A stretch of DNA of 46,815 bases from Verrucomicrobiota bacterium (GTDB lineage Bacteria; Verrucomicrobiota; Verrucomicrobiia; Limisphaerales; UBA9464): contig JAYVTS010000253.1 in the NCBI GenBank assembly GCA_043788645.1, forward strand, positions 1 to 46,815. The letters are read 5' to 3'. The notes beneath the pieces were generated by a model that ran no database searches, was not told the origin of the DNA, and worked only from the letters and a program-made list of their open reading frames with translations. The translations under genes and the position numbers were made by a program. Positions 8,462-28,020 of this stretch are shown in pieces (positions within the stretch are counted from its first letter, which is position 1; each line of letters opens with the position of its first letter).

Positions 8462-8574
8462 ACGGCAGCGGATTTCTCAACGCTTCGAGCCTGCCTCGTT
8501 CGAAGGCCTGAATAGGTTCGCAGCTCAAGCGCTCGGGCTCGACACCTCGCTAAACCCGTGCAACAACTTTGACC

Positions 8575-11061
8575 ATGCTTCGTCGGATCCTTCTTCAATG
8601 CACCCATTTGGGTCTGCTCCTATTGGGCGTTGTTAACGCTGCGGATCGGCTGGTGGAATGGTCGACTGCGACCGCCCGATTTGAATTGGGCGTCGATGGC
8701 GCGTTTCGTTCACTCATCCTGGTTGGCGCCCCTCAAAACTACTTAGCGCCCCAACAACCGTCGCCGTTGCTGAGCGTACGTTTGGCGGGAAAATGGTCTA
8801 CGCCGGATCAAGCCACTTGGGACGCGATGCGACGAGAAATTACTCTCCATTTTCGAACGGCCCACGCGACCGCCTCCCTCCGAGCCATCGCCAAACCCTC
8901 GCACCTTACCTTCGAAGTCGTGGAAATTCAACCAGCGGAATCGGTGGAACTCGTGCTCTGGGGCCCCTACTCGACGACGGTGCGTGGGATCATCGGAGAA
9001 ATTGTCGGCGTGGTCCGCGACGGCGACGTCGCTATTGGAATTCAAGCGCTCAATCCCAAAACGCTCGGCGGCTACCCGGTTAATGAAAATGACATTGATC
9101 ACGAATACGGCGCCGATGATACCGGAATCTACCGTCCGCCGTTCACCGCCGAACTCCAACACGGACAATCCTTCCGCGGCGATACCGCCCAAGGCACAGC
9201 GTTTGGCAGCATCCTACAGGCCTATACACGCAATCGGACTACCGGGCGAGTGCTCCCCAATTGGGGCCATGAAAAATACCGAGTATTGCCCCTGCCAGAC
9301 GGCGGACTCGTGGGTAGTCGCATTGCACTCTTTGCCGTTCCGGAAGCTCAGGCCCTCGCGACGATTGGTTCGATCGAGGTCGCCGAGGGGTTGCCGCATC
9401 CATTGATCGACGGTGTTTGGGCCAAGCAATCACCCGGGGCGACGGCTTCCTATCTCATTGTCGATTTTGGCGAGGCGACCATTGATCGCGCGATTGAGAT
9501 GACGAGGCGCGCAGGCTTGAAGTATCTCTATCATAGTTCGCCGTTTGCTACCTGGGGTCATTTCCAACTCAAAACCAATCTGTTTCCAAATGGTTGGGCT
9601 GGATTCAGACGCTGTGCCGATCAAGCCCGGACCGCTGGCATCCGCTTGGGATTTCATACCCTCTCCAATTTTATCACCCCCAACGATGGCTACGTGACAC
9701 CGCAACCAGATCCGCGCCTGGCGGTTATCGGATCCAGCGAACTCGCCAGCGATGTCGACGCCACGACGACCGAAATTCCGGTGAGCGCATCGGAATATTT
9801 TCAAAAGAAATCCGCGCTGAACACCATCCGACTCCAATCAGAGCTCGTGCGCTTTGAGGGCGTCTCCACTGAAACGCCGTGGCGTCTGTTGCACTGCGAA
9901 CGCGGAGCCTGGGGAACAAAGCCCGCCGATCACCCTCGCGGAACGCCGGTCGACCTACTTTTGGACCACGACTACAAAGTGTTTTTGACCGATGCCAGTC
10001 TTGCTCAAGAGGTCGCCCGCCAAATTGCACGATTCTGCAATGAGACCGGGGCACAACAACTCTCTTTCGATGGCCTGGAAGGCAACTGGTCCACCGGCTA
10101 CGGACAATATGGTCGCACGCTTTTCACGCAGGCGTGGTACCAAACACTGGCACCGGCGCTGCAAGGACAGATCATTAACGACGCGAGCAATCCCGGTCAT
10201 TTCAATTGGCATATTAATACCCGCATGAACTGGGGCGAACCGTGGTATGCCGGATTCCGAGAAAGCCAAACCCTCTACCGCTTCAAAAACCAGGTCCTCT
10301 TTGAACGTAACTTGATGCCGCATATGCTCGGCTGGTTTGCGCTGCGACCGGATACCTGCCTGGAAGATGCCGAATGGCTACTCGCCCGCGCGGCCGGATT
10401 CGACGCCGGTTTCACCCTGGCCACGAGTTTGGCCAGTACGGCTCAGCTGGCTGCCGACCCGGCCTCGGCGGATACCGCGCGCAAATTCGGCGCCACGGCC
10501 GCGATTCTCTCGACGATTGCAGAGTGGGAAACGGCACGCATGAGCGGCGCATTTCCACCGGAGCTCAAACTGAGACTTCGCGACAATCTGCGGGAGTTTC
10601 ACCTTCAACCCGTCCAAAAACTGGAATGGGATCTCCGCGAAGTCGCGGTGACTCGCCATACGTACCTTGCCGGCGCAGCGGACACCGCTGAAATTCCCCT
10701 CACCAACCACTTCGCCGCCCAGCCGCTGCAACTGATCGTTCGTTCCCAATCAAAAACCCCCATCGGTGAACTCACCGTGGAATTGAACGGAGCCACGGTG
10801 CTCGTCCAACCGGGCGGGTCTCTCCCGGCGACGGGCAGCCTGCGACTAACGGGTGATTCCGACGTGGTCCTGGCCGATAACACCTGGAAAGAGCTGGCTC
10901 GGAGGGAACTTTCGCCCCAACTTACGCGTCTTCCGGTCGGAACGTCGGTCCTTCGGATTCGTTCCGCCTTGCCGGAGGGAGACAAACTGCAACTTGAATT
11001 CCGGGTGATGGCTCCGGCGACGCGCATTCGTAGCCAGCGTCCAATGTCTTCTGCTCCGTAA
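8575..11061 (+). CDS. Secreted multidomain hypothetical protein, probable unclassified glycoside hydrolase (TIM barrel)
   Basis: Signal peptide; GIRLGFHTLSNF and QLSFDGLEG resemble barrel strands with acidic catalytic candidates; beta-rich N- and C-terminal regions. Confidence 0.6.
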   Translation: MLRRILLQCTHLGLLLLGVVNAADRLVEWSTATARFELGVDGAFRSLILVGAPQNYLAPQQPSPLLSVRLAGKWSTPDQATWDAMRREITLHFRTAHATASLRAIAKPSHLTFEVVEIQPAESVELVLWGPYSTTVRGIIGEIVGVVRDGDVAIGIQALNPKTLGGYPVNENDIDHEYGADDTGIYRPPFTAELQHGQSFRGDTAQGTAFGSILQAYTRNRTTGRVLPNWGHEKYRVLPLPDGGLVGSRIALFAVPEAQALATIGSIEVAEGLPHPLIDGVWAKQSPGATASYLIVDFGEATIDRAIEMTRRAGLKYLYHSSPFATWGHFQLKTNLFPNGWAGFRRCADQARTAGIRLGFHTLSNFITPNDGYVTPQPDPRLAVIGSSELASDVDATTTEIPVSASEYFQKKSALNTIRLQSELVRFEGVSTETPWRLLHCERGAWGTKPADHPRGTPVDLLLDHDYKVFLTDASLAQEVARQIARFCNETGAQQLSFDGLEGNWSTGYGQYGRTLFTQAWYQTLAPALQGQIINDASNPGHFNWHINTRMNWGEPWYAGFRESQTLYRFKNQVLFERNLMPHMLGWFALRPDTCLEDAEWLLARAAGFDAGFTLATSLASTAQLAADPASADTARKFGATAAILSTIAEWETARMSGAFPPELKLRLRDNLREFHLQPVQKLEWDLREVAVTRHTYLAGAADTAEIPLTNHFAAQPLQLIVRSQSKTPIGELTVELNGATVLVQPGGSLPATGSLRLTGDSDVVLADNTWKELARRELSPQLTRLPVGTSVLRIRSALPEGDKLQLEFRVMAPATRIRSQRPMSSAP

Positions 11062-11084
11062 CGTAATGATTCGATGAGAGTACG

Positions 11085-11395
11085 GATGGAACTGTCGGGT
11101 CGTAATGAAAAAAAACCTCATCTCATGAGCCTCGAAATGTCTAGAACCGGTAAGCCGAGCCGCTACCGTCAGCGCGGAGGCTGCGACGCAGTGTCATCAA
11201 ATCGTCAACTCGGCGCTGTTGATTCCGGCGGGGTCAGCGAGGACGACACGACAGGACGAACCACCAAGATAAGCTGGGAGAGCTCCCCGCGCGGGACGGC
11301 AGCGTCTCAACTTCCGGTCCAAGGCGGCAACTCCGCCAAGGCCGGAGCGGCGAGGGGAGCAGTCGGAGTCTTCCGTAGTAGCGATGAACCGGCGA
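11085..11395 (+). mobile_element. Degenerate group II intron ribozyme fragment (part of domain I, domain II, start of domain III); no RT/IEP
   Basis: Ordered motifs TGAGCCTCGAAA (11126), GCCGAG..GGAGGC, TCCGGCGGGGTC (11224), CTGGGAGAGC (11274), AGTCGGAG..CGTAGTAGCGATGAA (11361-11388); pairings CTGTCG/CGACAG and GCTCCCC/GGGGAGC. Confidence 0.6.
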
Positions 11396-11588
11396 ATATT
11401 CGGGTGCAAAGCCTAAGATTTTGGGCATAGCGCCGTCGTGTCACCGCGCAGCGCTCTCCGCCTGGCGGAAGCACACGTCCCCGAGTCATGAGGATTTGGT
11501 TCGGGTACACACCGAACACTCGGACCTGTTGCGGCGGTGTTTGATTGAGTCCTTGAGCGGGTCTTGGAACGTCCCACTCCGACGCCAA

Positions 11589-11726
11589 GTGACGGGTATC
11601 GCGACCGATACCTATGCCGAGAAAGTGGTGGTTGGCCGAGCCGATGAATTCAAGAGCTACGCCGAGGTGGAGGCGGAAGCGGACAAACGCATTGCGACGG
11701 CGTTGGCGGCCGACGTCGGGAAATAG
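11589..11726 (+). pseudogene. Possible C-terminal fragment of an unidentified gene
   Basis: VTGIATDTYAEKVVVGRADEFKSYAEVEAEADKRIATALAADVGK* is protein-like with GC3-rich codons, unlike the upstream part of the ORF. Confidence 0.35.
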
Positions 11727-11902
11727 AAATTGCTGATCGAGATGAATTATTTCGTGAGGTTCCGCAGATAAGGAACGCCTCAGAGATCGTGTTGCGCAGA
11801 CTTTCGATGGCTATGCATCGTTGTGGACGGAAATTTTCCCTTCGAGACACTTCTCGCGTAGCTCGGCCTTGATCAAGGGCGCATCGGTTATAGGTTTCTT
11901 CT

Positions 11903-12171
11903 ATGAAATCGATCCCTTGGCCCTCCCAGAAGACCTTCTGGGCGAGGTTCGGGAAACCGCTGCATTGACGGGGCTCTCGATGGCAGCTGCGATGCGCCAA
12001 AGTATGAAACTTGGCTTGCCACAGTTGCGCGAGCAACTGGCGCTCAAGCCAACCCTGAAACCGTTTTCAGCCGCCGAAACAAAGCGGGCCTTCGGTCCGG
12101 ACCCGGAAGGTGACTCCATTGCTTCGCGTTTGGGGCGCCGACGCCAACCTGAACCGGAAGTCGAGCGATGA
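11903..12171 (+). pseudogene. Ribbon-helix-helix-like antitoxin, apparently frameshifted near its start
   Basis: PLALPEDLLGEVRETAALTGLSMAAAMRQSMKLGL fits an RHH pattern; ATG at 11903 is out of frame with the body (in-frame TTG at 11917 is an alternative start); ATGA overlap with next ORF. Confidence 0.55.
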
Positions 12172-12290
12172 AGGCCTGGGAGATCTGGACCTGCCAACCC
12201 GAATTGAAACAACGCCGCGGGATCGTGACTCCGGAACGTCGACGTCAGATCATCGCGACGATTCAGCGCGCTCATGGTTGGGTAGACTAG
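12168..12290 (+). pseudogene. Internally deleted PemK/MazF-like toxin remnant (40 aa)
   Basis: MKAWEIWTCQP|ELKQRRGIVTPERRRQIIATIQRAHGWVD*: resembles MazF N-terminal strand joined directly to the C-terminal helix; coupled to antitoxin. Confidence 0.55.
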
Positions 12291-12336
12291 CCCTGGCCTT
12301 GCCCGATCTGTCACGGGTCATTTTGACTCTCCCGCG

Positions 12337-12427
12337 CTCCGCGAAGACTCGGCAAAGGCGCTGGCCGGTCCGAAATCCCTCGGACCGGGTGCCGCCTCGG
12401 CACCCACGCGCGACGCCGGGAGCGCGT
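12337..12427. repeat. GC-rich palindromic REP-like repeat, family A copy 1
   Basis: Hairpins CCGGTCCGA..TCGGACCGG and GGGTGCCG..CGGCACCC; reverse complement aligns with 28247-28360. Confidence 0.8.
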
Positions 12428-12446
12428 GCGAAATCCAAACCCAGTT

Positions 12447-13697
12447 TCAAGGTTCACCGACCGTGCTCGCCGCTTCGCGCTTCAGGCGCTGCCGTTCCGC
12501 AGCTTTCGCAAATGGAAAATACACGGCCATGGCAATCAAGATGGAGCAGGCACCCCAAACGGCCGCCTTCCAATCGCCTCCCGTGACCAGGTAGTGCCCA
12601 ATGATCGGAGGCGTGGTCCAGGGTATATTGACAAACGGTTTCGGAATAACCTGCCATTGCATCAACAGATAGCTGCCCGTCGTCAGAATCAGCGCATTAA
12701 TAATATATGGCACCATGAAAATCGGGTTTAGGACAATCGGAAACCCGAAAAATATAGGCTCATTAATTTGAAAAATCTGGGTGACTAATGAAAGTCGACT
12801 GACTTTGCGAAACCCAGGCTCACGCGAATTGAGCATGATCAGCGCCAATGCAATGGTAGCACCCGTTCCACCGACATTGACAAAAGTCGTGAAGAAACCC
12901 AGGGCGGTGATATAGGGCAACGGTTGGCCTTGAACCGTCGCCTCTACATTGGCGGCTAGATATTGAAGAAAGATCGGCGCAACGATGGCATCTAAGGTGT
13001 TGTCGCCATTGATTCCGACGGACCAAAGCAACGTCACCAGAAAGGCATAACTCAGAATGCCCGGGAGCGTGTTCAAAGCTGAAACCAGGGGCTGAAAGGC
13101 GACTTGGACCCCGTGATTCAGATCGATTCCCAGCACAAACCGCAGCAGCCAAAACACCACCATCAAAAAACAAAGGGGACTGAGCGAGGCAAACGAATCA
13201 TAGACCACCCGCGGAACGCTTGGAGGAAGTTTGATCACAAAATCGTGATCGGTGAAAAATTTCCGGACCCGAACCGAAATGAGCGAAATGAGGATCGCGA
13301 CGAATAATCCTTGGGAGCCCAGACTCTCCATATTGAAAGTCAGATCTTCCACTTTGAGCGAGATCATCAAAAAAACAGCGGTAGCCATGCCGGCGCTGAC
13401 GCTGGCTTCCTGCTTGAGTTGCCGCCCTAAATCGTAGCTGACCGAGTAGCAGACAAAAACCGCCAGGAGCCCGAAGCTAGCCGCGACTGGAACTTTCAAG
13501 AGTTGCTGGTACGGCGCCACGATTTTGTCCCAACCCGTCACGGGTAAATAGGCTAAAATCATGAAAAGCCCCCCAATGATGGTCAGGGGTACCACTGAAA
13601 CCACCCCTGCGCGAATGGCCGACAAATAGGTATTTTCGCTGAGAACCGTTAGGACCGGCACCAGGCGGCGATTGAGAAATCCAACGGTGGCGCTCAC
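12447..13697 (-). CDS. PTS cellobiose/chitobiose (Lac/Chb family) EIIC permease, orphan
   Basis: AIRAG, IKLPPSVP, GGTGAT, INEPIFFGFPIVLNP and PWTTPPII motifs; many hydrophobic TM segments. Confidence 0.92.
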   Translation of the reverse strand: MSATVGFLNRRLVPVLTVLSENTYLSAIRAGVVSVVPLTIIGGLFMILAYLPVTGWDKIVAPYQQLLKVPVAASFGLLAVFVCYSVSYDLGRQLKQEASVSAGMATAVFLMISLKVEDLTFNMESLGSQGLFVAILISLISVRVRKFFTDHDFVIKLPPSVPRVVYDSFASLSPLCFLMVVFWLLRFVLGIDLNHGVQVAFQPLVSALNTLPGILSYAFLVTLLWSVGINGDNTLDAIVAPIFLQYLAANVEATVQGQPLPYITALGFFTTFVNVGGTGATIALALIMLNSREPGFRKVSRLSLVTQIFQINEPIFFGFPIVLNPIFMVPYIINALILTTGSYLLMQWQVIPKPFVNIPWTTPPIIGHYLVTGGDWKAAVWGACSILIAMAVYFPFAKAAERQRLKREAASTVGEP

Positions 13698-13728
13698 CGG
13701 ACCTCCAGCCTGGATGAGTTAATGGAGT

Positions 13729-14964
13729 TCATACAACGGTGCTCAATGACGCTCGATTCTCGTACACTTTTTCAAACGCATCGGCAATGTCGTCCATATC
13801 AACTTTCTTTCCCAGAAACAGGGAATGTTCGAGCCACAGCCCTTGCGATCGGCATATGAGGTCACTATTGGGCGCCTTTGTGCCCCGGAAATCCAACCGA
13901 GCCGAGGCGTGCGGGAGATAGGGACCGAAGGCCTTGTTTCGGAACAAGGGCTGTTGGCATAGAGAAATCGCGTATCCGCCGGAGCACGGAATCCCTTCGG
14001 CTTGGAGGGCCCGAAGGACTTGATCCCGAGGCGCCCCAAAAATCTCGCTCTCCAGTCGCATCATAAACAGGTGATAACTGTGTCGGGTACAATCGCTCGG
14101 GCGCGCTTGCGGGTGAATTCCGGGCAACTTCCGCAATCGCGTTGCGAGATATTGGCCGTTTCGGTCCCGACGTTTCGTTTGGGTCTCTAGCCGTTCAAGC
14201 TGGCAATTGAGCAGGGCGCCCTGAAATTCTCCCAACCGATTGTTGCCTGAAATCACATGGTGCTCGTACCACACGCCGGTCGGGATTCGGCCGCAGTTAT
14301 GGATGGACCGACAGGATTCTGCCAAGGAATCGTCGTTGGTGATCAAGATCCCACCTTCGCCGCAAGTCAGGTTTTTGCTCGATTGAAAGGAAAAGGAACC
14401 GAGCTGCCCGAGCGAGCCAGCGGGACGATCTTGATACTTGGCCCCGTGCGCATGAGCGGCATCTTCGATAACGGTGAGTTGTTTTTTTTTTGCCAGAACC
14501 AGGAGTTCCTGCATGGCGGCCGGTTGTCCCGCAAAATGAACGGGGATCATCGCTCGCGTTCGAGGAGTGATTGCCGCAGCGACCGCCTTTGGATCTAAGT
14601 TAAAGGTCTGGTGATCGATATCCACGAAGACCGGAATCGCGTTGGCTTCTACGACCGCCGAAGCCGTCGAAAGAAACGTATAAGCAGGGACAATCACCTC
14701 GTCTTCGGACCGGATCCCTGCCGCCAGCAAGGCAATCCGGAGCGAGACGGTTCCGTTGACGATGGCAATTCCGTGCTGGCAGCCGTGTGCCAGGGCGAAG
14801 CGGCGTTCAAATTTTTCGACCTCGGTGCCCTGAAGGCGACCCCATTGGCCACTGTGCAAGGTGCGCAGGAGAGCTTGTTCTTCCGCACGACCAAAAATAG
14901 GCCAAGTGACAAAGGGCCGATTGCGAATCGGTTTTCCTCCGTGAAGCGCGAGCTGAAGTGGCAT
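13729..14964 (-). CDS. DegT/DnrJ/EryC1/StrS PLP aminotransferase (RifK/inosose aminotransferase-like)
   Basis: LALHGGKP..WP N-terminus, IEDAAHAHG, FSFQSSKNLTCGEGG (PLP Lys), GNNRLGEFQ. Confidence 0.92.
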   Translation of the reverse strand: MPLQLALHGGKPIRNRPFVTWPIFGRAEEQALLRTLHSGQWGRLQGTEVEKFERRFALAHGCQHGIAIVNGTVSLRIALLAAGIRSEDEVIVPAYTFLSTASAVVEANAIPVFVDIDHQTFNLDPKAVAAAITPRTRAMIPVHFAGQPAAMQELLVLAKKKQLTVIEDAAHAHGAKYQDRPAGSLGQLGSFSFQSSKNLTCGEGGILITNDDSLAESCRSIHNCGRIPTGVWYEHHVISGNNRLGEFQGALLNCQLERLETQTKRRDRNGQYLATRLRKLPGIHPQARPSDCTRHSYHLFMMRLESEIFGAPRDQVLRALQAEGIPCSGGYAISLCQQPLFRNKAFGPYLPHASARLDFRGTKAPNSDLICRSQGLWLEHSLFLGKKVDMDDIADAFEKVYENRASLSTVV

Positions 14965-15013
14965 GGGTTGAGTGAATGAGTTAACAATCGAATCGTGCTT
15001 CGGAGGTTCGGGA

Positions 15014-15643
15014 CTAAGTCCTCAGATCTTTCCCGAGATAGGTGCATCCGTCGGTAGCGGACCCCACTCGAACCAGTTCGCGAAAGCCCAACCGAAGATA
15101 GAATCCGAGGGCGACAGAATTCTGAGCACTGACGCCCAGGTGCGCTCCGGGCGAGCCTCGTTGGCGAAGTAAAGCCATCACTTGTCCCAAGAGGCGTCGG
15201 CCGAATCCGCGACCTTGCGCTCGATTGAGCAAGTCGATGTGCAGATGCGAGGGAAAGAGGTCGTGTGGTTCCGGTTGATAATAGTCTGGATGATGATACC
15301 CATCGTGTACCTGTTGGACCCGTGTCCATTGCTGGGGATCGCCTTGAGGCGCGGGAAATCGGCGACAGAGATCAGCGCGCCATTCGGTCTCGTAACGGGC
15401 GTAAAAACTCTTAGAATCCAACGCACCCAAGGCATAGCCGCAAATGCCCTGGGGATCTTCCAGGATCAAGCTGAACTCGGGTTCATACGCGAGATAAGGC
15501 CCGACGAAGATTCGACCGAGAGCATCCGGATCTTCCTCATAGAAGGGTTGGCCATCCTGGCCATAGTTCCCGGTTTTAAGGCAGACGTGGTAAGCTCCGG
15601 GTGCATCACCAGGGCGAGCAGGGCGAATGACGCAGTCCTTCAC
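15014..15643 (-). CDS. GNAT N-acetyltransferase resembling the O-GlcNAcase C-terminal acetyltransferase-like domain
   Basis: VCLKTG..G.D, VGPYL, HLHIDLLNRAQGRGFG (AcCoA loop), GVSAQNSVALGFYLRLGF; GTG start overlaps GH84 TGA. Confidence 0.88.
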   Translation of the reverse strand: MKDCVIRPARPGDAPGAYHVCLKTGNYGQDGQPFYEEDPDALGRIFVGPYLAYEPEFSLILEDPQGICGYALGALDSKSFYARYETEWRADLCRRFPAPQGDPQQWTRVQQVHDGYHHPDYYQPEPHDLFPSHLHIDLLNRAQGRGFGRRLLGQVMALLRQRGSPGAHLGVSAQNSVALGFYLRLGFRELVRVGSATDGCTYLGKDLRT

Positions 15644-17073
15644 GAGCAGGGGAGGGTTGAGGAAGTGCGAGTATTGAGTTTGAGGGACGGGGTTGGCGCC
15701 CAACGCAGCGGGATTGGAGGTGCTGGAACAAAGCTTTCATCGCTTTGCGGCAGCAGAAGTTGTTGCAACCTGGCGACGAAACTGCCGCGATAAGTCCCGG
15801 GAAGGTGAAAGTCTGAGCGACCCAGCTTGTCGCGATTGGCTGGATCCGCCACCAGGGTGACGTAGCGAATGAGCAAGTCGAGTTCCTCACGCAGTTCCCA
15901 GAGTCGGCGACTTAATGCGTAAAAGAGTGGGCGCTGACGCAACTCGGAGAGGCGGGCGCAAAAATCCCTCAAGCGGATGGCTAAATGTCGAAATTTTACC
16001 GCGCTCTCACCCCATTCAGAAGGGGGACGGGAGAGCAACTCACGGGCTTGTTTGTAGAGGTCGATGGCTAGCGGACCATCCGTATAGGGAAGGTAGAAAC
16101 AATCCCCCAAAAGAATGAGATCCTCCAGCGCGACGGATTGGGTAGCCGTGGCAAATTCCTGATACCAGTCCTGCATGGCGGTTGCGTAGGCGGCCCGGGC
16201 ATCCCAGGAACCTTGGCATTTGACGAAGTCGCCTAAAGTTCGGATGGGCACGTAGTTCAGGTGAAATTCTGTGTTTGGATTCAGTAGCAGTCCGCTCAGT
16301 TCATGCTTGAGTTCCACGGGACGTCCGGCATAGGGCCCGCAGTAAAAACGACGGCCGTCGTAGTCATTGGCGTGGAGATTATCCCAAAGGAACGGCTTTC
16401 GACGTAGGATTTTTTGCAATCCCTGAATGTGCGCGACGGTAATTTGTTCCGAGATAATTTCCGGCCCCGTCCAGCAGACGTCGATTTCAGGCAGGAGTTC
16501 TCGTCCCAGGGTTTCAAGGTAGTCCGCGCCACCGAGTTGCCGTTCCGCCATGCGACCGCAATAGGGCGTTGGGCAGAAAAAAAATCGAGCGTGGGGTTGC
16601 CGTTCGCGGACCCAGCGAAAGAGGGTATTGGTTACGTAACACTGGGCTGAAGCGAGAGAACCCCACCGTTGACGATCTTCGGGATCCATCCGGTCCGGAA
16701 TATCGTCGAAGAGCAGAAAAAAATGGGGACAACCCAGTTCGAGAAGTTGAGCGAGCCGGTTTTGCAGCTGATCCAAATCCGGCTCGTGGCTGTAGCGGAG
16801 GTCCAGACCTGGGCCTAGGGCGTAGATGAATTCGATGCCTCGGTTATGGCAGGAAGTGATGAGTTTCCGGAGCGACTCGGCCTCTGGGGGTGAGTACCGT
16901 TCACGCCAGAGGGCTCGATGCTTCAGATCATCTTTGGGCGCGTAGCAGTAGGTATTCAATCCCGAACGGACCATCCAATCCAGCAATTCTCGGCGCTCGA
17001 TTTGGCTCCAAGGCGGCCCGTAGAAGCCTTCGATAACCCCGGCAAGAAAACTCGAAACGGTGTGTGATCCCAT
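15640..17073 (-). CDS. GH84 beta-N-acetylglucosaminidase (O-GlcNAcase), cytoplasmic
   Basis: GVIEGFYGPPW, YAPKDDLKHR..WRE.Y, catalytic LLFDDI, CPTPY, WTG, LWDNLHANDYD; no signal peptide. Confidence 0.95.
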   Translation of the reverse strand: MGSHTVSSFLAGVIEGFYGPPWSQIERRELLDWMVRSGLNTYCYAPKDDLKHRALWRERYSPPEAESLRKLITSCHNRGIEFIYALGPGLDLRYSHEPDLDQLQNRLAQLLELGCPHFFLLFDDIPDRMDPEDRQRWGSLASAQCYVTNTLFRWVRERQPHARFFFCPTPYCGRMAERQLGGADYLETLGRELLPEIDVCWTGPEIISEQITVAHIQGLQKILRRKPFLWDNLHANDYDGRRFYCGPYAGRPVELKHELSGLLLNPNTEFHLNYVPIRTLGDFVKCQGSWDARAAYATAMQDWYQEFATATQSVALEDLILLGDCFYLPYTDGPLAIDLYKQARELLSRPPSEWGESAVKFRHLAIRLRDFCARLSELRQRPLFYALSRRLWELREELDLLIRYVTLVADPANRDKLGRSDFHLPGTYRGSFVARLQQLLLPQSDESFVPAPPIPLRWAPTPSLKLNTRTSSTLPCS

Positions 17074-17389
17074 GCGTGCGAGAACTCTCTTCGATCAAGC
17101 GCCGACGTTCGTCAATTCCGGCGCGAAACCCTCAAGCCCATGCCCTGAATCCATGTTTCTCAACCCGCAGGGTTCTATTCGCAGACTCTCCTCGGCTAAA
17201 TGAACCGCATTTTCACAAATCCCACCGATCCGATAATACGGTGTCTCCAAAAATATTTTGACCCTTTCTGATTCCTGTTTTTCTTGAAACGGCTCTGAAC
17301 TGGGCGCTCCGGCGGCCCTTGATTCGGGCGACGTGCCAGCTTCAGAATTTCTGCTGGATTTTCAGCGGAGCACTCGTAACCGTAAGCAA

Positions 17390-18766
17390 ATGGCGCATTC
17401 ATTCACGAGAAGAACCCGCTGGCAGGCTGCGCCTCCGGGCTTCGTTGGGCGCCTCGCCTCTCTGTCGGCGGTCCTCCTCGGAATCGTCTTAAACGCCGCC
17501 GAGCCAGCCGTCATCAATCGGGATAATGGGCTACGGCCAGCGGTCCCGAAAATTGAAGCGGAAACGGCTGCACTCAAGGAAGACGCCGTCGAAACGGCAG
17601 TCCAACTCGCGAAGGCTTATCCCGAAGATGCCCTTGCCTACGCCTTACTCGGAGCCGCGTACTACAACGTTGGCCGATCCGGAGAAGCCACCAAACATCT
17701 GCAAAAATGCCTCGCCCTGAATCCGAACCAGGCCGATGCGTATGAAATCTTGGCGCGCGTTGCCTACGAAAAGGGGAACCTGGAAGAATCCGGACAGCTC
17801 TGTCGCGAGGCCTTGAAGCGAGGCCCGGCTAACCCGGACGTTCTCAACCAACTCGGTCGCGCCTTGATGGATCTTGGCAAAACAGACGAGGCTATTCAGG
17901 GACTGCAGCAAGCCGCGGGAATCCCCAATGCGCCCAGTCAAAGCTTTTACTGGCTAGGCCAAGCCTATCTTCAGGCCGGGAATTTTGCGCAAGGCAAAAT
18001 CAATTTCCAAAAAGCCATTGCGATTCTTCCTGACCACACTCAGGCCTATTTTGCACTTTATCGAGCCTGCCAGGCTTTGGGACAGACTGAAGAAGCTCAA
18101 CGCCATCGTGAACAGTTCGTCCAGCTGGAGGCGATTGATCGAAATTCCCTGACCGAGCAGAGCGCTCAGATGGATACCCTGACCGGGTTGCCGCAAGTTC
18201 AGTCGACCGTCGCGAGGACCTTCTTCGGCGCCGCCCAGGTTTACCGCCTTCACCAACAACCCGCGAAGGCAGCCGAATTGTTTCAAAAAGCCGCAAGCTT
18301 AGACACCGGCAACGGGAGCTATCGAGGGGCGTTGGAATCGCATTATGTTCAAAGCAAAATGTTACCGGAAGGAGTGGCCGCCTTCGAAAAGTTGTCGGCC
18401 GGACAGCCGACCAATCACCTCAACCAGTTTTTCCTCGGGAGATTGCACGCCCGGCTCGACCACCTGGAGGCCGCCGTAAGTGCTTTCCGGAAAGTGCAAG
18501 AACTGGCTCCGAATTGGGCGGAGGGCTACCGTGCGCTGGCCGATCTGGAAGTGCGGAACAACCGAAATCTTTCCGAAGCCCTCACCCTGGCTCGGAAAGC
18601 GGCCGAATTGGAACCGGCAGCGCCCCACTTCTATCTCCTGGCCGTTGCCTGCGTTAAGAACCATGATCATTCCGGTGCCTTGGAAGCAATCAACCGAGCC
18701 TTGGCTCTGGCTCCAGGAGAGAAACGGTATCGAGAAATCCTCGAACAAATCAGCCAGTCTCCTTAA
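17390..18766 (+). CDS. Secreted TPR protein
   Basis: Signal-like N-terminus; many TPR repeats (AYALLGAAYY, ALNPNQADAY, LAPNWAEGY). Confidence 0.88.
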   Translation: MAHSFTRRTRWQAAPPGFVGRLASLSAVLLGIVLNAAEPAVINRDNGLRPAVPKIEAETAALKEDAVETAVQLAKAYPEDALAYALLGAAYYNVGRSGEATKHLQKCLALNPNQADAYEILARVAYEKGNLEESGQLCREALKRGPANPDVLNQLGRALMDLGKTDEAIQGLQQAAGIPNAPSQSFYWLGQAYLQAGNFAQGKINFQKAIAILPDHTQAYFALYRACQALGQTEEAQRHREQFVQLEAIDRNSLTEQSAQMDTLTGLPQVQSTVARTFFGAAQVYRLHQQPAKAAELFQKAASLDTGNGSYRGALESHYVQSKMLPEGVAAFEKLSAGQPTNHLNQFFLGRLHARLDHLEAAVSAFRKVQELAPNWAEGYRALADLEVRNNRNLSEALTLARKAAELEPAAPHFYLLAVACVKNHDHSGALEAINRALALAPGEKRYREILEQISQSP

Positions 18767-18839
18767 ATAGATCTCGCCACCCGGGTTTTGGTGTCTGACT
18801 CTCCACTCAATCCAGTTACCGCTCGCGATTTTTACCGTC

Positions 18840-20582
18840 ATGGCCAACAGAAACACCTCGCACTCCCTACGAACGATCCGTGGTGTTTTTTTTTCAATTC
18901 TACCTTGTTTTAGGCTCGTCCTCGCGCTGTGCCTCGCTGTCAATCGTACGACGGCTGCTGATTCAAAAGGCACCATTCAACTCCGTGATGTGACTCGATC
19001 TTCGGGTATCACCTTCGTCCACACCGACGGAAGTTCTGGGCGTCATTACATCGTCGAGACCGTCGCCAGCGGGCTGGCGCTCTTCGACTACAATGGAGAC
19101 GGACTGATTGATATTTATTTTCTGAATGGTCGTCCGCTCGCAGATACAAATGCTCCGGCCACCCGTAATGCGCTTTACCGAAATGATGGGAACTGGCATT
19201 TTACAGACGTCACCGAACAGGCCGGAGTCGAAGGCACCGGCTATGGTTTGGGGGTTTGCGTAGGTGACTATAATAATGATGGTCACCCAGACCTGTACGT
19301 CAACAATTTTGGACGGAATGTCCTTTATCGGAACAACGGGAACGGCACCTTTACTGACGTGACCCGGCAAGTCGGCCTGGAACTCGACCATCATGTGGGT
19401 GGCGGAGCCGCTTTCTTGGATATCGATGGTGATGGAAAACTGGACTTGTTCGTAGCGAACTACGTGGACTTCAATTTCGAGAACCACCGGGTTTCCTACA
19501 TGAATGGCCTACCGGCCTACGTTGGCCCGCTGCACTATCCGGCCACGGCGGGCGTTTTGTATCACAACAATGGCGATGGCACCTTTACTGACGTCAGTGT
19601 TGCGTCGGGCATTGCGGCACACCTGGGAGCAGGAATGGGGGTGATTTGTGCCGACTATGACCATGACGGGGATACCGACATCATCGTGGGTAACGATATG
19701 CGCCCAAATTTCGTTTTTCAGAACGACGGCAAAGGGCACTTCAAGGAAGTCGGCGGGCTTTTGGGATTGGCGTACGCCGCACTCGGCCACGTCCACGGCA
19801 CGATGGGAGTGGAGTGCGCTGATTGGAACAACGACGGCTGGTTGGATTTTTATATGACCGCCTATCAGCGGCAACTTTCGACCCTTTATCAAAGCAAGGG
19901 TGGTGCCTATTTTGACGACGTTACCCGCCAAACCGGCGCGGGTACGGGAACCTATCCCAACGTCACCTGGGGCACCGGCATGGTCGACTTTGATAACGAC
20001 GGATACCGCGACATTTTTATCGCCTGCGGACACCTCATCGACAACGTCGAAAAGTTCGACGACACCACTGGCTATGCCGAGCGGAACATTCTTCTGCGGA
20101 ACAATACTCAAGGCAAGTTCGTCGACGTTTCAGATCAGGCGGGCGACGGATTATTGCCCAAGCTGAGCAGTCGGGGAGCCGCTTTTGATGATTTGGACAA
20201 TGATGGACGCGTCGACGTCGTCGTCCTCAATTCGAGGCGGGAACCCACCCTATTACGAAACGTTTCCAGCGCGACGAATCATTGGCTCCAAGTCCAGCTG
20301 CGGGGAACCAAATCAAACCGGGACGGCATCGGTGCGCAGGTCCGGGTTCGGGCGGGTGACTTCACTTCAATGGACGAAGTTCATAGCGGCCGTAGTTATC
20401 AGAGTGACTTCGGAAAACGGCTCCACTTTGGCCTCGGCCAGCGCAGCAAAATCGATGAAATCCAGGTGAATTGGATCGGCGGCGGAGTCGATATCATTCG
20501 CAATGTGAGCGTTGATCGGCGGGTGTTGATCGTAGAAGGCAGCGGCGTTGTGACGGGGACCGAAGGGACCCCACCACGATGA
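18840..20582 (+). CDS. CRTAC1/ASPIC-UnbV FG-GAP repeat protein (paralog 1)
   Basis: Repeated DYNxDGxxD motifs; NRDGIGAQV..SGRSYQS..LHFGLG ASPIC/UnbV C-terminus. Confidence 0.92.
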   Translation: MANRNTSHSLRTIRGVFFSILPCFRLVLALCLAVNRTTAADSKGTIQLRDVTRSSGITFVHTDGSSGRHYIVETVASGLALFDYNGDGLIDIYFLNGRPLADTNAPATRNALYRNDGNWHFTDVTEQAGVEGTGYGLGVCVGDYNNDGHPDLYVNNFGRNVLYRNNGNGTFTDVTRQVGLELDHHVGGGAAFLDIDGDGKLDLFVANYVDFNFENHRVSYMNGLPAYVGPLHYPATAGVLYHNNGDGTFTDVSVASGIAAHLGAGMGVICADYDHDGDTDIIVGNDMRPNFVFQNDGKGHFKEVGGLLGLAYAALGHVHGTMGVECADWNNDGWLDFYMTAYQRQLSTLYQSKGGAYFDDVTRQTGAGTGTYPNVTWGTGMVDFDNDGYRDIFIACGHLIDNVEKFDDTTGYAERNILLRNNTQGKFVDVSDQAGDGLLPKLSSRGAAFDDLDNDGRVDVVVLNSRREPTLLRNVSSATNHWLQVQLRGTKSNRDGIGAQVRVRAGDFTSMDEVHSGRSYQSDFGKRLHFGLGQRSKIDEIQVNWIGGGVDIIRNVSVDRRVLIVEGSGVVTGTEGTPPR

Positions 20583-22300
20583 ACTCGGGATTACGTCGCG
20601 GCCCCGGTGGGCGAACCATCAGGAGCCCTCTAAAGGGTCCGCTCGCGTGGCTTGGGGTTTGGTTTTCGTTCATCGGTACTCCGCTGCTTCTGAGGGCTGA
20701 GCTGGTCTCCCCGATTCTCCTTCGTGACGCCACGGCTCAAACAGGAATCCATTTTGTCCACACTGACGGCGGTTCCGGTCGGCGCTATATCGTCGAAAGC
20801 GTGGCCAGCGGTTTGGCCCTCTTCGACTATAACGGCGACGGCCTGATCGATATCTATTTCCTGAACGGAACGGCCCTTCCCGGTTCTCCGGCCGGACCGC
20901 GCCCTCGGAGTGCCCTCTATCGGAATGAGGGTCACATGAAGTTCACCGACGTGACGGCGCCAGCGGGCGTCGGCGGAACGGGCTTTGCGCTGGGGGTCTG
21001 TATCGGCGACTACAACAACGACGGCAACCCGGATATCTACGTCAACAATTTCGGCCCCAATGTCCTGTATCGAAATAATGGAGATGGCACATTTACCGAT
21101 GTCACTCAGGCAGCCGGAGTTGCCAATGGAAGCAAGTTAGGTGCGGGGGCGAGTTTTCTCGATATCGATGGCGATGGCTACCTGGATCTATTTGTGGCCG
21201 ATTACTGTGATTTCACGTTCGCTAAGCATCAGAATCGTTTTATCAACGGCCATCAAGCCTATAGCGGTCCGGCGATTTACGGTCCCGTGTCGGCCACGCT
21301 TTTCCATAATAACCGCGACGGTACCTTTACGGATATCAGTCGGGAATCAGGGATTGCCGCCCATGCCGGCACCGGGATGGGCGTGGTCTGTGCCGATATC
21401 GACAATGACGGGGACACCGACATCATTGTCGGCAACGATGGCATGGCCAATTTTGTCTGGCGGAATGACGGCCAGGGACATTTCGAGGAGATCGGACTTT
21501 TCTCCGGACTGGCCTACGACCGAAACGGCGTCGGGTTAGGAACTATGGGAGTGGAATGCGGTGACTACGATAACGATGGTCGCCTGGATTTCTATATGAC
21601 CCATTATCAAAAGCAGTGGGGAATTCTATACCGTAACTTGGGGAAAAATCTGTTCGAGGATGTGACTCATCTGACGGGTGCTGGCGCCGGAACGTACAAT
21701 CAGGTGACTTGGGGGGTCGGTCTGGTCGATTTTGATAACAACGGTGATCGCGACCTCTTCATCGCCTGCGGACACATCCAAGACAATGTTGGACTCTGGG
21801 ATGACACGACCAGCTACGAGGCCCGCAACCTATTGCTAGAGAATAGGGGACACGGAAAGTTTCAGGATGTTTCCGCGCGCTCTGGTGATGGAATGGCGTT
21901 GAAACGCAGTGGTCGAGGCGTTGCTTTCGACGATCTGGATAACGACGGACGGATCGATGTGGTCGTCCTGAACTCCCGCCGGGAACCCACCATTCTCCAT
22001 AATGAAAGCCCGGGGCAGAATCATTGGCTGGGCGTGAAATTGAAGGGAACTAGCACCAACCGGGACGGAATCGGCGCGCGCATCAAGGTCGTCTCCGATG
22101 ACTTGACGCAGATTGACGAGGTTCACAGTGGCCGGAGCTATCAAAGCAGTTACGGGATGTATCCGCATTTTGGTCTAGGGAAACGCAAGCACATCGAAAG
22201 GATTGAAGTTCGCTGGGTTGGGGGAGGGACCAATCTGGTAGAGAATATCGATGCGGACCGAGTCGTCACGATTACCGAAAGCAAGCCCAATCCGAAATGA
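20579..22300 (+). CDS. CRTAC1/ASPIC-UnbV FG-GAP repeat protein (paralog 2)
   Basis: Same architecture, colinear with upstream paralog; ATGA overlap. Confidence 0.92.
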   Translation: MNSGLRRGPGGRTIRSPLKGPLAWLGVWFSFIGTPLLLRAELVSPILLRDATAQTGIHFVHTDGGSGRRYIVESVASGLALFDYNGDGLIDIYFLNGTALPGSPAGPRPRSALYRNEGHMKFTDVTAPAGVGGTGFALGVCIGDYNNDGNPDIYVNNFGPNVLYRNNGDGTFTDVTQAAGVANGSKLGAGASFLDIDGDGYLDLFVADYCDFTFAKHQNRFINGHQAYSGPAIYGPVSATLFHNNRDGTFTDISRESGIAAHAGTGMGVVCADIDNDGDTDIIVGNDGMANFVWRNDGQGHFEEIGLFSGLAYDRNGVGLGTMGVECGDYDNDGRLDFYMTHYQKQWGILYRNLGKNLFEDVTHLTGAGAGTYNQVTWGVGLVDFDNNGDRDLFIACGHIQDNVGLWDDTTSYEARNLLLENRGHGKFQDVSARSGDGMALKRSGRGVAFDDLDNDGRIDVVVLNSRREPTILHNESPGQNHWLGVKLKGTSTNRDGIGARIKVVSDDLTQIDEVHSGRSYQSSYGMYPHFGLGKRKHIERIEVRWVGGGTNLVENIDADRVVTITESKPNPK

Positions 22301-27126: not shown

Positions 27127-27148
27127 ATCAAATCAAGGGGTAGTGGAA

Positions 27149-27165
27149 CTGCGAAGCGTTTGCAA
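27149..27165. promoter_or_regulatory. Candidate Zur/Fur-family operator
   Basis: Imperfect 7-1-7 palindrome TGCGAAG-C-GTTTGCA about 23 bp upstream of the COG0523 start. Confidence 0.45.
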
Positions 27166-27596
27166 ATTCACCTGGTCTTGGGAGCGCGTCCAGTCCTCTC
27201 TCATCCTTCACCACAAATAGTGGTGTCTCCTAACCGCTCGTTTTGGCTGGCAGCCCCGGTTTTCGAGCCCAGCGTCCTGGGCGGGCGAGGTCTGGACTGA
27301 GCAAGTTCGCAAATTTTGCGATCAGGAACAATCGACGCGAGCCGCACCAGACTGCATCGCCTAAGATACCGGAGGGCTATGGAGGGTCATCGCCAGGGCG
27401 CCCCACCCATGCCGCTTAACTTTGCTACCAATCAATTCGCTTGAATCAAGCTCATTGGAGCCGCCGAACTCTCGATCGGCTCGTTTTCTAACGATGAATG
27501 GATTCCGGGGTTGGCGACGCCAAGTCGTCCCGGAGCACTGGTTGCGAGCATCCAATGCCCCAGCGCAACGAATACCAGGTCATCCTACGCCGCGTC

Positions 27597-28020
27597 ATTT
27601 TTTTATATATCAATCCTGTTAAAATGTATGAAAATTAAAATCATAGCGCCAGACAGCATTGATACATGTTATGTTAACTTGACTAAACATATTGTCAATA
27701 TAAATATCCAAGCATCATGTTAAAAATGTTTTTGAATTTGTGGTAATAATGATCATGGAACACAATCATTAAATATTGTCAATATAACAATATTGTTTTA
27801 ATATTTGTTTATTAGAATTCATTGGCAGATAGAATGTAAAATTAAAAATACTGACATAATATTTTAAGCCCAGAACCAAGAAATAATTAGCATGTAAATA
27901 TAAATTGACACTCATAATGCGCAATAATATAAACTGCCATGTTTTAAATTTGACTTTATCGTGTCGTGTCAATACAATAATCAAGTCATTATGAATGAGC
28001 ATGTGAGTGCCAATTAAATC
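27597..28020. other. AT-rich non-coding island with direct repeats
   Basis: About 20-30% GC by hand count of sample lines; ATATTGTCAATATAA at 27689 and 27773; multiple TTGAC/GTCAA. Confidence 0.85.
27905..27933 (+). promoter_or_regulatory. Near-consensus sigma70 promoter
   Basis: TTGACA-N17-TATAAA (chance matches are likelier in AT-rich DNA). Confidence 0.45.

Follow-up and report, generated by a model that had tools for sequence, protein, structure and literature searches.

A conserved core of three genes, encoding an O-GlcNAcase of the GH84 family, an OgpAT-type GNAT acetyltransferase and an orphan EIIC of the lactose/cellobiose/chitobiose family, recurs in Verrucomicrobiota and Planctomycetota, and a DegT-type PLP aminotransferase belongs to the cluster as an accessory member. 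The first two genes are already known as the OgOGA-OgpAT pair; what is new is that an orphan EIIC and, at part of the loci, DegT accompany the pair. The co-location of O-GlcNAcase, acetyltransferase, aminotransferase and lone EIIC suggests that bacterial relatives of the human signalling enzyme OGA work on imported amino-sugars. We tentatively read the cluster as a module that takes up a beta-linked amino-sugar glycoside and processes it in the cytoplasm, a reading that we would put slightly below an even chance, and the most likely substrate would be a chitosan-, chitin- or cell-wall-derived disaccharide with a free glucosamine amine.

Papers of 2013 and 2025 describe both the acceptor of OgpAT-type enzymes and the reason for the evolutionary link between GH84 and GNAT as open, and passages of the 2013 paper say the same of the function of OgpAT-type enzymes. 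The conserved transporter, the accessory aminotransferase and the fusion partners drawn from sugar enzymes narrow the acceptor question to a few amino-sugar glycoside assays. The cluster also offers a natural and abundant example of an EIIC apparently outside the phosphotransferase system (PTS), with a diagnostic His-to-Asn change. A full-text search of the main texts of papers returned no paper tying GH84 to EIIC or describing the cluster. The original prediction knew of no pathway on record that unites the four genes, and it missed the published OgOGA/OgpAT operon, in which GH84 and GNAT already stand together.

Gene organization

The window, that is, the whole 46,815-nt stretch of DNA that was analyzed, comes from a genome that is 90% complete. 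Host of the four-gene cluster is a soil or sediment bacterium. The ORF map confirmed four co-oriented genes with gaps of -4, 49 and 31 bp (Table 1), and the family originally assigned to each of the four proteins held in a Pfam profile search.

Table 1. Features of the cluster and its upstream flank (window coordinates)
Feature	Position	Strand	Remarks
GH84 beta-N-acetylglucosaminidase, eukaryote/OgOGA type	15640..17073	-	477 aa; ORF map, PF07555, PDB matches
OgpAT-type GNAT acetyltransferase	15014..15643	-	GTG start, 209 aa; 4-bp overlap with GH84 stop
DegT/DnrJ/EryC1/StrS PLP aminotransferase	13729..14964	-	411 aa; gap to GNAT 49 bp
Orphan lactose/cellobiose/chitobiose-family EIIC	12447..13697	-	416 aa; gap to DegT 31 bp
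Intergenic region, presumed operon promoter region	17074..17332	.	259 bp, common to operon and divergent TPR gene
TPR gene, divergent from operon	17333-18766	+	ORF map

Gene spacing and synteny suggest that the four genes form an operon, whose promoter would lie within 17074..17332. A consensus scan for promoters and terminators gave no more hits than shuffled sequence and no promoter site on the minus strand, so the operon call is based on spacing and synteny. No Rfam family was matched in the window, and no 6-phospho-glycosidase or sugar kinase was present among the window ORFs scanned.

The O-GlcNAcase and its partner acetyltransferase

The GH84 protein matches PF07555 at 1.1e-78 (265 bits, against a gathering cut-off of 25) and is about 50% identical to the catalytic domain of human OGA. 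Its PDB matches include human OGA constructs at 8e-100 to 3e-94 and OgOGA (2xsa) at 3.4e-84, with residues 10-439 aligned, and the OGA stalk chains 5uhk_B and 11lj_C cover residues 311-440; the predicted architecture is a catalytic TIM barrel plus a helical stalk. When aligned to 5m7r, the protein keeps equivalents of human G67, Y69, K98, D174, D175, C215, Y219, W278, N280, D285 and N313, of which we take D174 and D175 to be the catalytic Asp-Asp pair and K98, Y219, N280, D285 and N313 to bind GlcNAc. Its residue 8 aligns with residue 59 of human OGA, where the alignment starts, and there is therefore no space for a signal peptide; the enzyme is, as originally described, one with an intact DD motif and no signal peptide. 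With the NCBIfam equivalog NF041654 (GlcNAcase), a model that describes a larger enzyme type, it scores 160 bits and misses the cut-off of 1000. The enzymes to which it is closest are known for removing O-GlcNAc from proteins, an observation that stands as a counterpoint to the module reading. The C-terminal acetyltransferase-like domain is not fused to the window GH84 and is instead encoded by the separate, overlapping gene.

That gene product matches Pfam GNAT families at about 1e-6 to 1e-7, and its PDB matches are OgpAT (3zj0) at 4.5e-42 over residues 3-193 and 4bmh at 8.6e-34; it also aligns with human OGA residues 715-914 at 4e-20. Similarity to OgpAT is full length and covers the family-specific insertions. 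The Q-G-R-G-x-G loop is intact, in line with the AcCoA loop reported for it at the outset, and the sites examined (H135, G144, G146, G148, N175 and Y182 in OgpAT numbering) are all invariant in 12 orthologues. Roles for H135, the P-loop glycines and N175 in OgpAT are given by Rao et al. (2013, PMC3814719), and AcCoA binding has been demonstrated for that homologue only. Judged by these alignments, the window GNAT is homologous to the pseudo-HAT domain at the C-terminus of OGA, with a predicted intact AcCoA site, and the GH84-GNAT pair is the split bacterial form of the eukaryotic O-GlcNAcase.

GNAT homologues in cultured bacteria lie in amino-sugar loci. In Falsirhodobacter the locus holds a BadF-type kinase, ROK, DMT, GNAT, nagB and an amidohydrolase; in Duffyella and R. 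tropici a sugar ABC transporter and ROK lie alongside; and Agrobacterium and Microvirga share the arrangement ROK, Gfo/Idh/MocA, GNAT. Four of the nine plasmid contexts inspected were uninformative.

The orphan EIIC

The EIIC matches PF02378 at 1.2e-44 and passes the lactose/cellobiose subfamily model TIGR00410 (295.2 bits against a cut-off of 236), but it falls below every cut-off of the cellobiose, lactose and chitobiose equivalog models. Alignment with B. cereus ChbC (3qnq; 1e-60) places N230 at the position of H250 and E313 at that of E334. At the His position of G-[ILV]-H-G the window protein has Asn, as do 60 of the 62 distinct cluster EIICs, and the Glu of N-I-N-E is kept in all 65 cluster sequences (62 distinct). 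Because the homologue search returned only close orthologues (more than 3000 relatives at E <= 1e-10, the 120 listed sharing 75-100% identity), plasmid EIICs were taken as PTS-coupled comparators; all five carry the G-I-H-G His, and IIA and/or IIB are annotated beside four of them. We take this His to be a defining, conserved residue of PTS-coupled EIICs.

The cluster EIIC is a true orphan, without IIA or IIB. Neither partner occurs among the window ORFs scanned, PF02302 and PF02255 are unmatched in the 90% complete window genome, where the cluster EIIC is the sole EIIC, and the same two profiles (IIB and IIA, respectively) match 0/41 related genomes, 32 of them at least 90% complete. As controls, the IIA/IIB profiles do match in E. 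coli, B. subtilis and L. lactis. The original description of a Chb-family EIIC with no IIA/IIB, 6-phospho-glycosidase or kinase nearby was thus accurate for the window ORFs scanned. From its motif and its missing partners, the protein appears no longer to belong to the phosphotransferase system. EI and HPr were found in the genome search, so an unrecognised phosphoryl donor is possible.

The accessory aminotransferase

The aminotransferase matches PF01041 at 5.9e-100 (335 bits) and reaches no NCBIfam equivalog cut-off. Its best solved relative is AHBA synthase 1b9h (3.7e-73), followed by 8gyh and 5w70, 2-deoxy-scyllo-inosose aminotransferases being among these relatives. The PLP lysine, K197, aligns with K188 of 1b9h, and the PLP aspartate aligns as well. 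DegT is an accessory member of the cluster and, on this evidence, probably belongs to the AHBA-synthase/inosose-aminotransferase branch; the RifK/inosose-aminotransferase type first proposed for it agrees with its best PDB matches. That said, genes for AHBA, rifamycin or aminocyclitol synthesis are neither present in the window nor conserved near related loci, and the analysis of conserved neighbours found no oxidoreductase in the cluster able to make a keto substrate for DegT. A hypothetical gene that follows a Chloroflexota DegT was considered as a candidate GNAT and rejected.

Two proteins in which GNAT is fused to DegT suggest that these enzymes handle the same amine. The original prediction that the aminotransferase acts on the other moiety of the glycoside is unsupported, since the two fusions point the other way. 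The catalytic residues of GH84, GNAT and DegT appear intact by alignment, in keeping with the module reading.

Conservation of the cluster

Across Verrucomicrobiota and Planctomycetota, where gene orders vary, the cluster shows strong synteny, and its recurrence in many genomes places the arrangement far beyond chance. Among 80 GNAT-bearing loci, GH84 adjoins in 66, EIIC in 55 and DegT (beside GH84 or GNAT) in 34. The full four-gene order is found in 21 of the 80, so the genes do keep together in other genomes, the point on which the original prediction had staked itself. Another 25 loci have GH84-GNAT-EIIC without DegT, and DegT is therefore accessory. The four-gene unit as first proposed was right as to synteny; the conserved core, which that proposal did not single out, is GH84-GNAT-EIIC.

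Linkage is also evident at the level of genomes. In a set of 41 relatives, every EIIC-bearing genome (20/20) also holds GNAT and GH84 and has a single EIIC gene (split over two contigs in G015); this gene is adjacent to GNAT/GH84 in 17 of the 20, and where it is unlinked (G027, G028 and G029) its neighbours are uninformative. Stop-free GH84-GNAT fusion frames occur in 4 of the 80 loci (L112, L113, L117 and L121), two of them confirmed by Pfam. Longer GNAT homologues (n=60) carry GH84 in 52 cases, DegT in 2, GKRP/MurQ-like SIS domains in 2 and an MR_MLE domain in 1. A 688-aa open frame in G018 (L018, the same as record L074) was rejected as a further GH84-GNAT fusion, its matches lying in different frames, and an apparent fifth conserved family, found in 47 loci by neighbour clustering, turned out to consist of shadow ORFs lying antisense to real genes. 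GNAT loci without an upstream GH84 have no consistent substitute, the genes seen there being apiosidase-like, NusB, DUF1501, SASA esterase and epimerase.

NagA is found above cut-off in 4 of the 41 relatives, and within the window's own family a full-length NagA-like match occurs in one genome only. This scarcity weakens a simple catabolic reading and leaves the fate of released GlcNAc in doubt.

A model for the pathway and its alternatives

The steps of the proposed module can be set out as follows. The orphan EIIC, with no IIA/IIB and with Asn for the conserved His, would import the glycoside without phosphorylation. The sugar amine would then be N-acetylated by the OgpAT-type GNAT, a step for which AcCoA binding is demonstrated in the homologue OgpAT only. 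GH84, whose family activity is established, would hydrolyse the resulting beta-N-acetylglucosaminide, presumably its substrate here. Substrate-assisted catalysis in GH84 requires a 2-acetamido group. Least certain is the last step, in which DegT, where present, would exchange keto and amino groups on that same sugar and so supply or remove its amine. The original idea that N-acetylation creates the acetamido group needed by GH84, with hydrolysis to follow, finds direct precedent in GH3 systems (PMC4680927), and the acetylate-then-hydrolyse order fits the gene neighbourhoods in which the GNAT homologues of cultured bacteria occur; the substrate itself is still a matter of inference.

The same genes could act in another order, with EIIC importing fully acetylated chitobiose or another beta-GlcNAc glycoside, GH84 cleaving it directly, and GNAT with DegT acting on the released monosaccharides (for example GlcN to GlcNAc, to be salvaged into cell-wall precursors). 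The nearest solved EIIC is indeed the chitobiose transporter ChbC, the Falsirhodobacter GNAT has a monosaccharide-type kinase, nagB and an amidohydrolase for neighbours, and RmNag is reported to acetylate free GlcN best (PMC4680927). Yet this order would leave the frequent fusion or translational coupling of GH84 and GNAT unexplained, free GlcN is normally phosphorylated directly, and most of the window's family yielded no NagA; we regard this order as unlikely. Recycling of peptidoglycan fragments, in which EIIC would import GlcNAc- or GlcN-(anhydro)MurNAc, GNAT would re-acetylate de-N-acetylated GlcN and GH84 would act as a NagZ, is brought to mind by the two GNAT homologues fused to GKRP/MurQ-like SIS domains and by GlmA, which is cited as doing the same upstream of a beta-N-acetylglucosaminidase (PMC4680927). 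It is very unlikely, however, given that the analysis of conserved neighbours found no amidase, MurQ or anhMurNAc kinase conserved beside the cluster and that DegT would have no obvious role.

Two further readings take the pair out of sugar uptake. In a bacterial protein O-GlcNAc system, GH84 would de-O-GlcNAcylate cytoplasmic proteins, GNAT would acetylate proteins, and EIIC and DegT would be mere metabolic neighbours. Its likeness to the catalytic domain of human OGA (about 50% identity) and the stalk of GH84 favor such a role, as do a published account of a conserved peptide-binding groove common to OgOGA and human OGA and a reported bacterial O-GlcNAc system in Thermobaculum. Against it, GT41 OGT (PF13844) was absent from the search of the window genome, matched in 1 of the 41 relatives and is missing from 22 of the 23 genomes that hold both GH84 and GNAT; moreover, EIIC is genomically locked to the pair, and the fusion partners and neighbours of GNAT are sugar enzymes. 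We consider a protein O-GlcNAc role improbable to about the same degree as peptidoglycan recycling. Still less probable is a biosynthetic route in which DegT and GNAT would together make an N-acetylated amino-sugar or aminocyclitol, with GH84 trimming a glycosylated intermediate and EIIC carrying product or precursor through the membrane. Aminotransferase and N-acetyltransferase are a classical acetamido-sugar pair, the nearest solved DegT relatives are secondary-metabolite enzymes, and GNAT-DegT fusions exist, but DegT is missing from many loci with the core, EIICs are known as importers, and the conserved neighbours include no glycosyltransferase, dehydrogenase, nucleotidyltransferase or other gene of biosynthesis. 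Haloarchaeal DegT homologues (38-40% identity) likewise lie in catabolic-looking loci with ABC transporters, PIG-L deacetylase and glycosidases. The alternative voiced in the original prediction, that the cluster makes and exports a metabolite, has little in its favor.

The uptake-and-processing module permits a broader conjecture, one that is more doubtful than the module itself. The GH84-stalk-GNAT arrangement that later became the eukaryotic O-GlcNAcase may have begun as a two-enzyme device for N-acetylating imported glucosaminides for hydrolysis, fed by a stand-alone, non-PTS EIIC carrier; the inert pseudo-HAT of human OGA would then be the fossil of a sugar N-acetyltransferase and not of a histone acetyltransferase.

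Comparison with known systems

RifK AHBA synthase and the 2-deoxy-scyllo-inosose aminotransferases are the best solved relatives of DegT and align at the PLP lysine and aspartate, but identity is modest and the AHBA, rifamycin and aminocyclitol genes are not near the window DegT. The ChbBCA chitobiose PTS (B. cereus ChbC 3qnq, Borreliella celB, Rahnella ChbC) has an EIIC of the same family, a fold-level match at 1e-60 with the N-I-N-E Glu kept. It differs from the cluster, which lacks IIA/IIB (41 genomes), has Asn for the G-I-H-G His, and has the non-phospho glycosidase GH84 in place of the PTS 6-phospho-beta-glucosidase.

Closer in proposed logic are two systems described in PMC4680927, in which a glucosaminide is N-acetylated and then cleaved by an acetamido-requiring enzyme: acetyl transfer by RmNag of Rhizomucor miehei, a GH3-GNAT fusion, is required for cleaving (GlcN)2, and GlmA of Clostridium acetobutylicum acts before a beta-N-acetylglucosaminidase. 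Their glycosidase is GH3 whereas that of the window is GH84, so the likeness is one of working only, and RmNag (4ZM6) is absent from the PDB matches of the window GNAT at E <= 0.01, so the acetyltransferases are not close. Unlike the window cluster, neither is described there with a dedicated transporter or aminotransferase.

Human and Trichoplax OGA share with the window pair the domain order GH84, stalk, acetyltransferase-like domain, and the catalytic and sugar-binding residues are identical. The eukaryotic enzyme is one protein and the window has two genes, though 4 of 80 related loci are fused. Eukaryotic pHAT domains are without the AcCoA site that the window GNAT keeps, and the GT41 OGT partner was not found by profile search in the window genome. 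The nearest counterpart is the OgOGA-OgpAT operon of Oceanicola granulosus (Rao et al. 2013, PMC3814719; 2xsa, 3zj0), where a stalk-bearing GH84 likewise stands directly ahead of a GNAT belonging to the subfamily of the window protein. The window proteins match both structures full length (3.4e-84 and 4.5e-42), with H135, the P-loop and N175 kept. Passages of that report name only two genes, whereas the pair analyzed here goes with an orphan EIIC and, at part of the related loci, with DegT as well.

The gene cluster and its surroundings

The window comes from contig C253 of a 5.48 Mb assembly that is 90% complete; its close relatives carry Verrucomicrobiota labels (Pedosphaera/Limisphaerales type), and the DNA runs containing the stretch are sediment metagenomes. 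An ORF map returned, at exactly the expected positions, the four co-oriented genes of the original prediction, and Pfam and NCBIfam agreed with all four family assignments. The predicted lack of IIA, IIB, 6-phospho-glycosidase and sugar kinase genes nearby likewise held among the window ORFs scanned. For the GNAT a longer TTG frame is present, but the GTG start is where orthologues begin to align. Upstream of the cluster lie a 259-bp intergenic region and then a divergent TPR gene, and promoter and terminator scans gave no informative signal for the cluster. The TPR and FG-GAP/ASPIC genes, all divergent from the predicted operon, are not kept beside it in other genomes.

Features of the cluster and its surroundings in the window
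Feature	Position	Strand	Description
GH84	15640-17073	-	ORF, 477 aa
GNAT	15014-15643	-	ORF, 209 aa; GTG start; 4-bp overlap with GH84 stop
DegT	13729-14964	-	ORF, 411 aa; 49-bp gap before
EIIC	12447-13697	-	ORF, 416 aa; 31-bp gap before
TPR and FG-GAP/ASPIC genes	17333-22300	+	TPR protein, then two tandem FG-GAP/ASPIC (UnbV) paralogues, 580 and 573 aa, 4-bp overlap
Large ORF	8569-11061	+	830 aa; no Pfam or NCBIfam match
Stretch between large ORF and EIIC gene end	11062-12446		1.4 kb; short ORFs only (118, 101, 116 aa); no Pfam family or Rfam match
G+C dip	27001-28000		G+C 0.44 vs about 0.56 elsewhere; between CobW-family and MFS transporter genes

GH84 and GNAT correspond to a published pair

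The window GH84 is of the O-GlcNAcase (OGA) type rather than a generic hexosaminidase. Among solved structures it matches human OGA constructs best (8e-100 to 3e-94), followed by OgOGA of Oceanicola granulosus (3.4e-84, spanning residues 10-439), and residues 311-440 match the OGA stalk. Bit scores were higher for human OGA (320-338) than for the bacterial OgOGA (286). Aligned with full-length human OGA, the protein retains equivalents of G67, Y69, K98, D174, D175, C215, Y219, W278, N280, D285 and N313.

The best structure match of the GNAT is OgpAT (PDB 3zj0, 4.5e-42), the partner of OgOGA; others are the S. sviceus homologue 4bmh, Trichoplax pHAT and human OGA residues 715-914. His135, Gly144, Asn175 and Tyr182 are invariant across an alignment of 12 orthologues. 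Rao et al. (2013, PMC3814719) placed OgpAT directly downstream of OgOGA, mirroring the human domain order, demonstrated AcCoA binding, proposed His135 as the base, described a narrow tunnel as the likely determinant of acceptor specificity, and declared the acceptor and biological function unknown; a 2025 paper still terms the GH84-pHAT link an open question. This arrangement is exactly that of the first two genes in the window, so half of the cluster originally regarded as undescribed is a known gene pair, albeit one of unknown function according to Rao et al.

An EIIC with Asn in place of a conserved His

The EIIC passed the lactose/cellobiose subfamily model, failed all substrate-specific equivalogs, and matched the B. 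cereus chitobiose EIIC, ChbC, at 1e-60. ChbC His250, in the G-I-H-G motif at the phosphorylation site, lies opposite Asn230 of the window protein, and Glu334 (N-I-N-E) is retained. All five plasmid-borne EIICs used as comparators (from Priestia, Borreliella celB, Klebsiella, Lactococcus LacE and Rahnella ChbC) have the His, with IIA and/or IIB annotated alongside in four. Among 62 distinct cluster EIICs, the residue is Asn in 60 and His in 2, and the Glu is kept in all. The two with His, at loci L091 and L099, come from two Acidobacteria-labelled bins of a single study; L091 shows all four genes in order, and L099 begins at the GNAT, at a contig end (GNAT>DegT>EIIC).

Neither PTS IIB (PF02302) nor IIA (PF02255) was found in any of 41 related genomes (32 with a completeness of 90% or more), in searches that detected the positive controls. 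Because of this, the simplest reading is that the EIIC would be a carrier no longer phosphorylating its sugar, and a non-phospho glycosidase adjoining it fits such a carrier. The window's genome contains EI and HPr. The EIIC occurs in 20 of the 41 relatives as one gene each (spread over two contigs in genome G015); all 20 also have GNAT and GH84, and in 17 the EIIC is adjacent. GNAT (E < 1e-50) is present in 25 of the 41 and GH84 in 24, 23 of which also have GNAT. The EIIC clade is abundant, with 3046 proteins at E <= 1e-10, the best 120 being 75-100% identical.

Conservation of the cluster

The synteny survey used the GNAT as marker and covered one genome for each species. At least 593 loci carry GNAT relatives, and the best 80 were classified by tblastn with the four window proteins (E <= 1e-15). 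Within these 80, GNAT is accompanied by GH84 in 66, EIIC in 55 and DegT in 34; these are minimum counts, since contig ends cut some loci.

Gene orders among the best 80 of at least 593 GNAT loci
Order	Loci	Cut by contig end
GH84>GNAT>EIIC	25	
GH84>GNAT>DegT>EIIC	21	
GH84>GNAT	10	5
GNAT>EIIC	5	
GH84>GNAT>DegT	5	3
GNAT alone	5	
DegT>GH84>GNAT	4	
GNAT>DegT>EIIC	2	
GNAT>DegT	1	
EIIC(-)>DegT>GNAT	1	
EIIC(-)>GH84>GNAT	1	

A second sample, 24 loci from 24 of 40 related genomes, agreed with this: 13 have GH84>GNAT>EIIC and 2 have all four genes. Three of its loci also belong to the 80. Clustering of all neighbouring ORFs yielded no fifth conserved family. These results together identify GH84-GNAT-EIIC as the conserved core and DegT as a recurrent accessory. 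Since gene orders vary between lineages, the linkage argues for selection, not shared ancestry alone.

An apparent fifth family proved to be antisense shadow ORFs and was rejected. Locus L021 also holds a truncated GH84 (4683-4850, equivalent to G008:C225:5891-6076). This short N-terminal piece, interrupted by a TAA stop, sits some 1.7 kb upstream of the intact gene and looks like a duplication remnant.

Gene fusions and the accessory DegT

Four loci of Planctomycetota type (L112, L113, L117 and L121) encode GH84 and GNAT in single stop-free frames of 675-819 aa, each followed by EIIC; Pfam recognised both domains in the two scanned. Among 60 GNAT homologues longer than 366 aa, 52 carry PF07555 and two (P0129, P0174) carry DegT, the GNAT being at the N-terminus, which matches the gene order in the window. 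GKRP/MurQ-like SIS domains were found in two, enolase-superfamily MR_MLE, DUF188 and DHHA1 in one each, and nothing was recognised in one. A lone fusion seen on a metagenome contig may be an artefact; this does not account for the many GH84 fusions, but the two DegT fusions carry less weight. P0140, P0176 and P0131 are the proteins in which this GNAT subfamily is joined to a GKRP/MurQ-like double-SIS or MR_MLE domain, and an MR_MLE gene is also found near the GNAT in Microvirga.

The DegT scores below every equivalog cut-off, its PLP lysine K197 aligns with K188 of AHBA synthase, and solved members of its branch act on free keto-cyclitols or keto-sugars. Two types occur. Genes for the first, 65-75% identical to the window protein, are found between GNAT and EIIC; genes for the second, 36-48% identical, precede GH84 in loci labelled Planctomycetota and in one labelled Verrucomicrobiota. 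To judge from the GNAT-DegT fusions, DegT and GNAT may act on the same amine. The cluster has no conserved dehydrogenase that would supply a keto substrate; Gfo/Idh/MocA enzymes sit with the GNAT in Proteobacteria, and haloarchaeal DegT homologues occupy loci of catabolic appearance.

The acceptor and the proposed pathway

GNAT homologues with 28-37% identity along their whole length occur on 31 plasmids, and none of the plasmid loci has a GH84. Nine contexts were inspected, a Nonomuraea locus being outside the nine, and five are sugar or amino-sugar loci: Falsirhodobacter (ABC ATPase, BadF-type kinase, ROK, DMT transporter, GNAT, nagB, amidohydrolase), Duffyella (sugar ABC transporter, GNAT, ROK, BadF-type kinase, Gfo/Idh/MocA), R. 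tropici (sugar-binding protein and two permeases divergent from GNAT, with ROK as well), and Agrobacterium and Microvirga (each ROK, Gfo/Idh/MocA, GNAT). The other four (two Streptomyces, Mesorhizobium, Deinococcus) are uninformative. These contexts and the fusion partners point to a probable small-molecule amino-sugar acceptor rather than a protein.

On sequence similarity, the natural reading is a role for the cluster GH84 on protein O-GlcNAc. Searches for a GT41 OGT, however, gave a match in just one of the 41 relatives and none in the window's genome, and this role leaves the transporter linkage without explanation. Simple catabolism is a further reading, against which the scarcity of NagA (GlcNAc-6-phosphate deacetylase, TIGR00221) counts: only 4 of the 41 genomes score above cut-off, and within the window's own family a full-length NagA-like match occurs in G008 only. 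Beside this tally, ROK kinases were found along with a NagB/Pgl-family protein, and released GlcNAc may be salvaged or handled by an unrecognised enzyme. NagA is rare although most of these genomes encode a cytoplasmic beta-N-acetylglucosaminidase.

GH84 enzymes use the substrate's own 2-acetamido group as nucleophile, so that a free-amine glucosaminide is no substrate until acetylated. This need and a documented GH3 precedent favour an order in which the EIIC would import the substrate without phosphorylation, the GNAT would N-acetylate the imported glucosaminide, and GH84 would hydrolyse the acetylated product.

Comparison with known systems

The full-text literature searched did not describe the pair together with an orphan His-to-Asn EIIC, an accessory DegT beside GH84-GNAT, or the metabolic reading of bacterial OGA relatives that results. 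Already known are the GH84-GNAT pair itself and acetylation before hydrolysis for GH3. According to one paper (PMC4680927), the fused GNAT of RmNag, a Rhizomucor miehei GH3-GNAT fusion, acetylates GlcN and chitosan oligomers and is needed for (GlcN)2 cleavage, and in C. acetobutylicum the glucosaminidase acts on cell-wall fragments whose GlcN ends GlmA has first acetylated; the same paper remarks upon the architectural parallel with OGA and draws no functional conclusion. RmNag and GlmA thus follow the acetylate-then-hydrolyse logic proposed here, but with a glycosidase of family GH3 rather than GH84.
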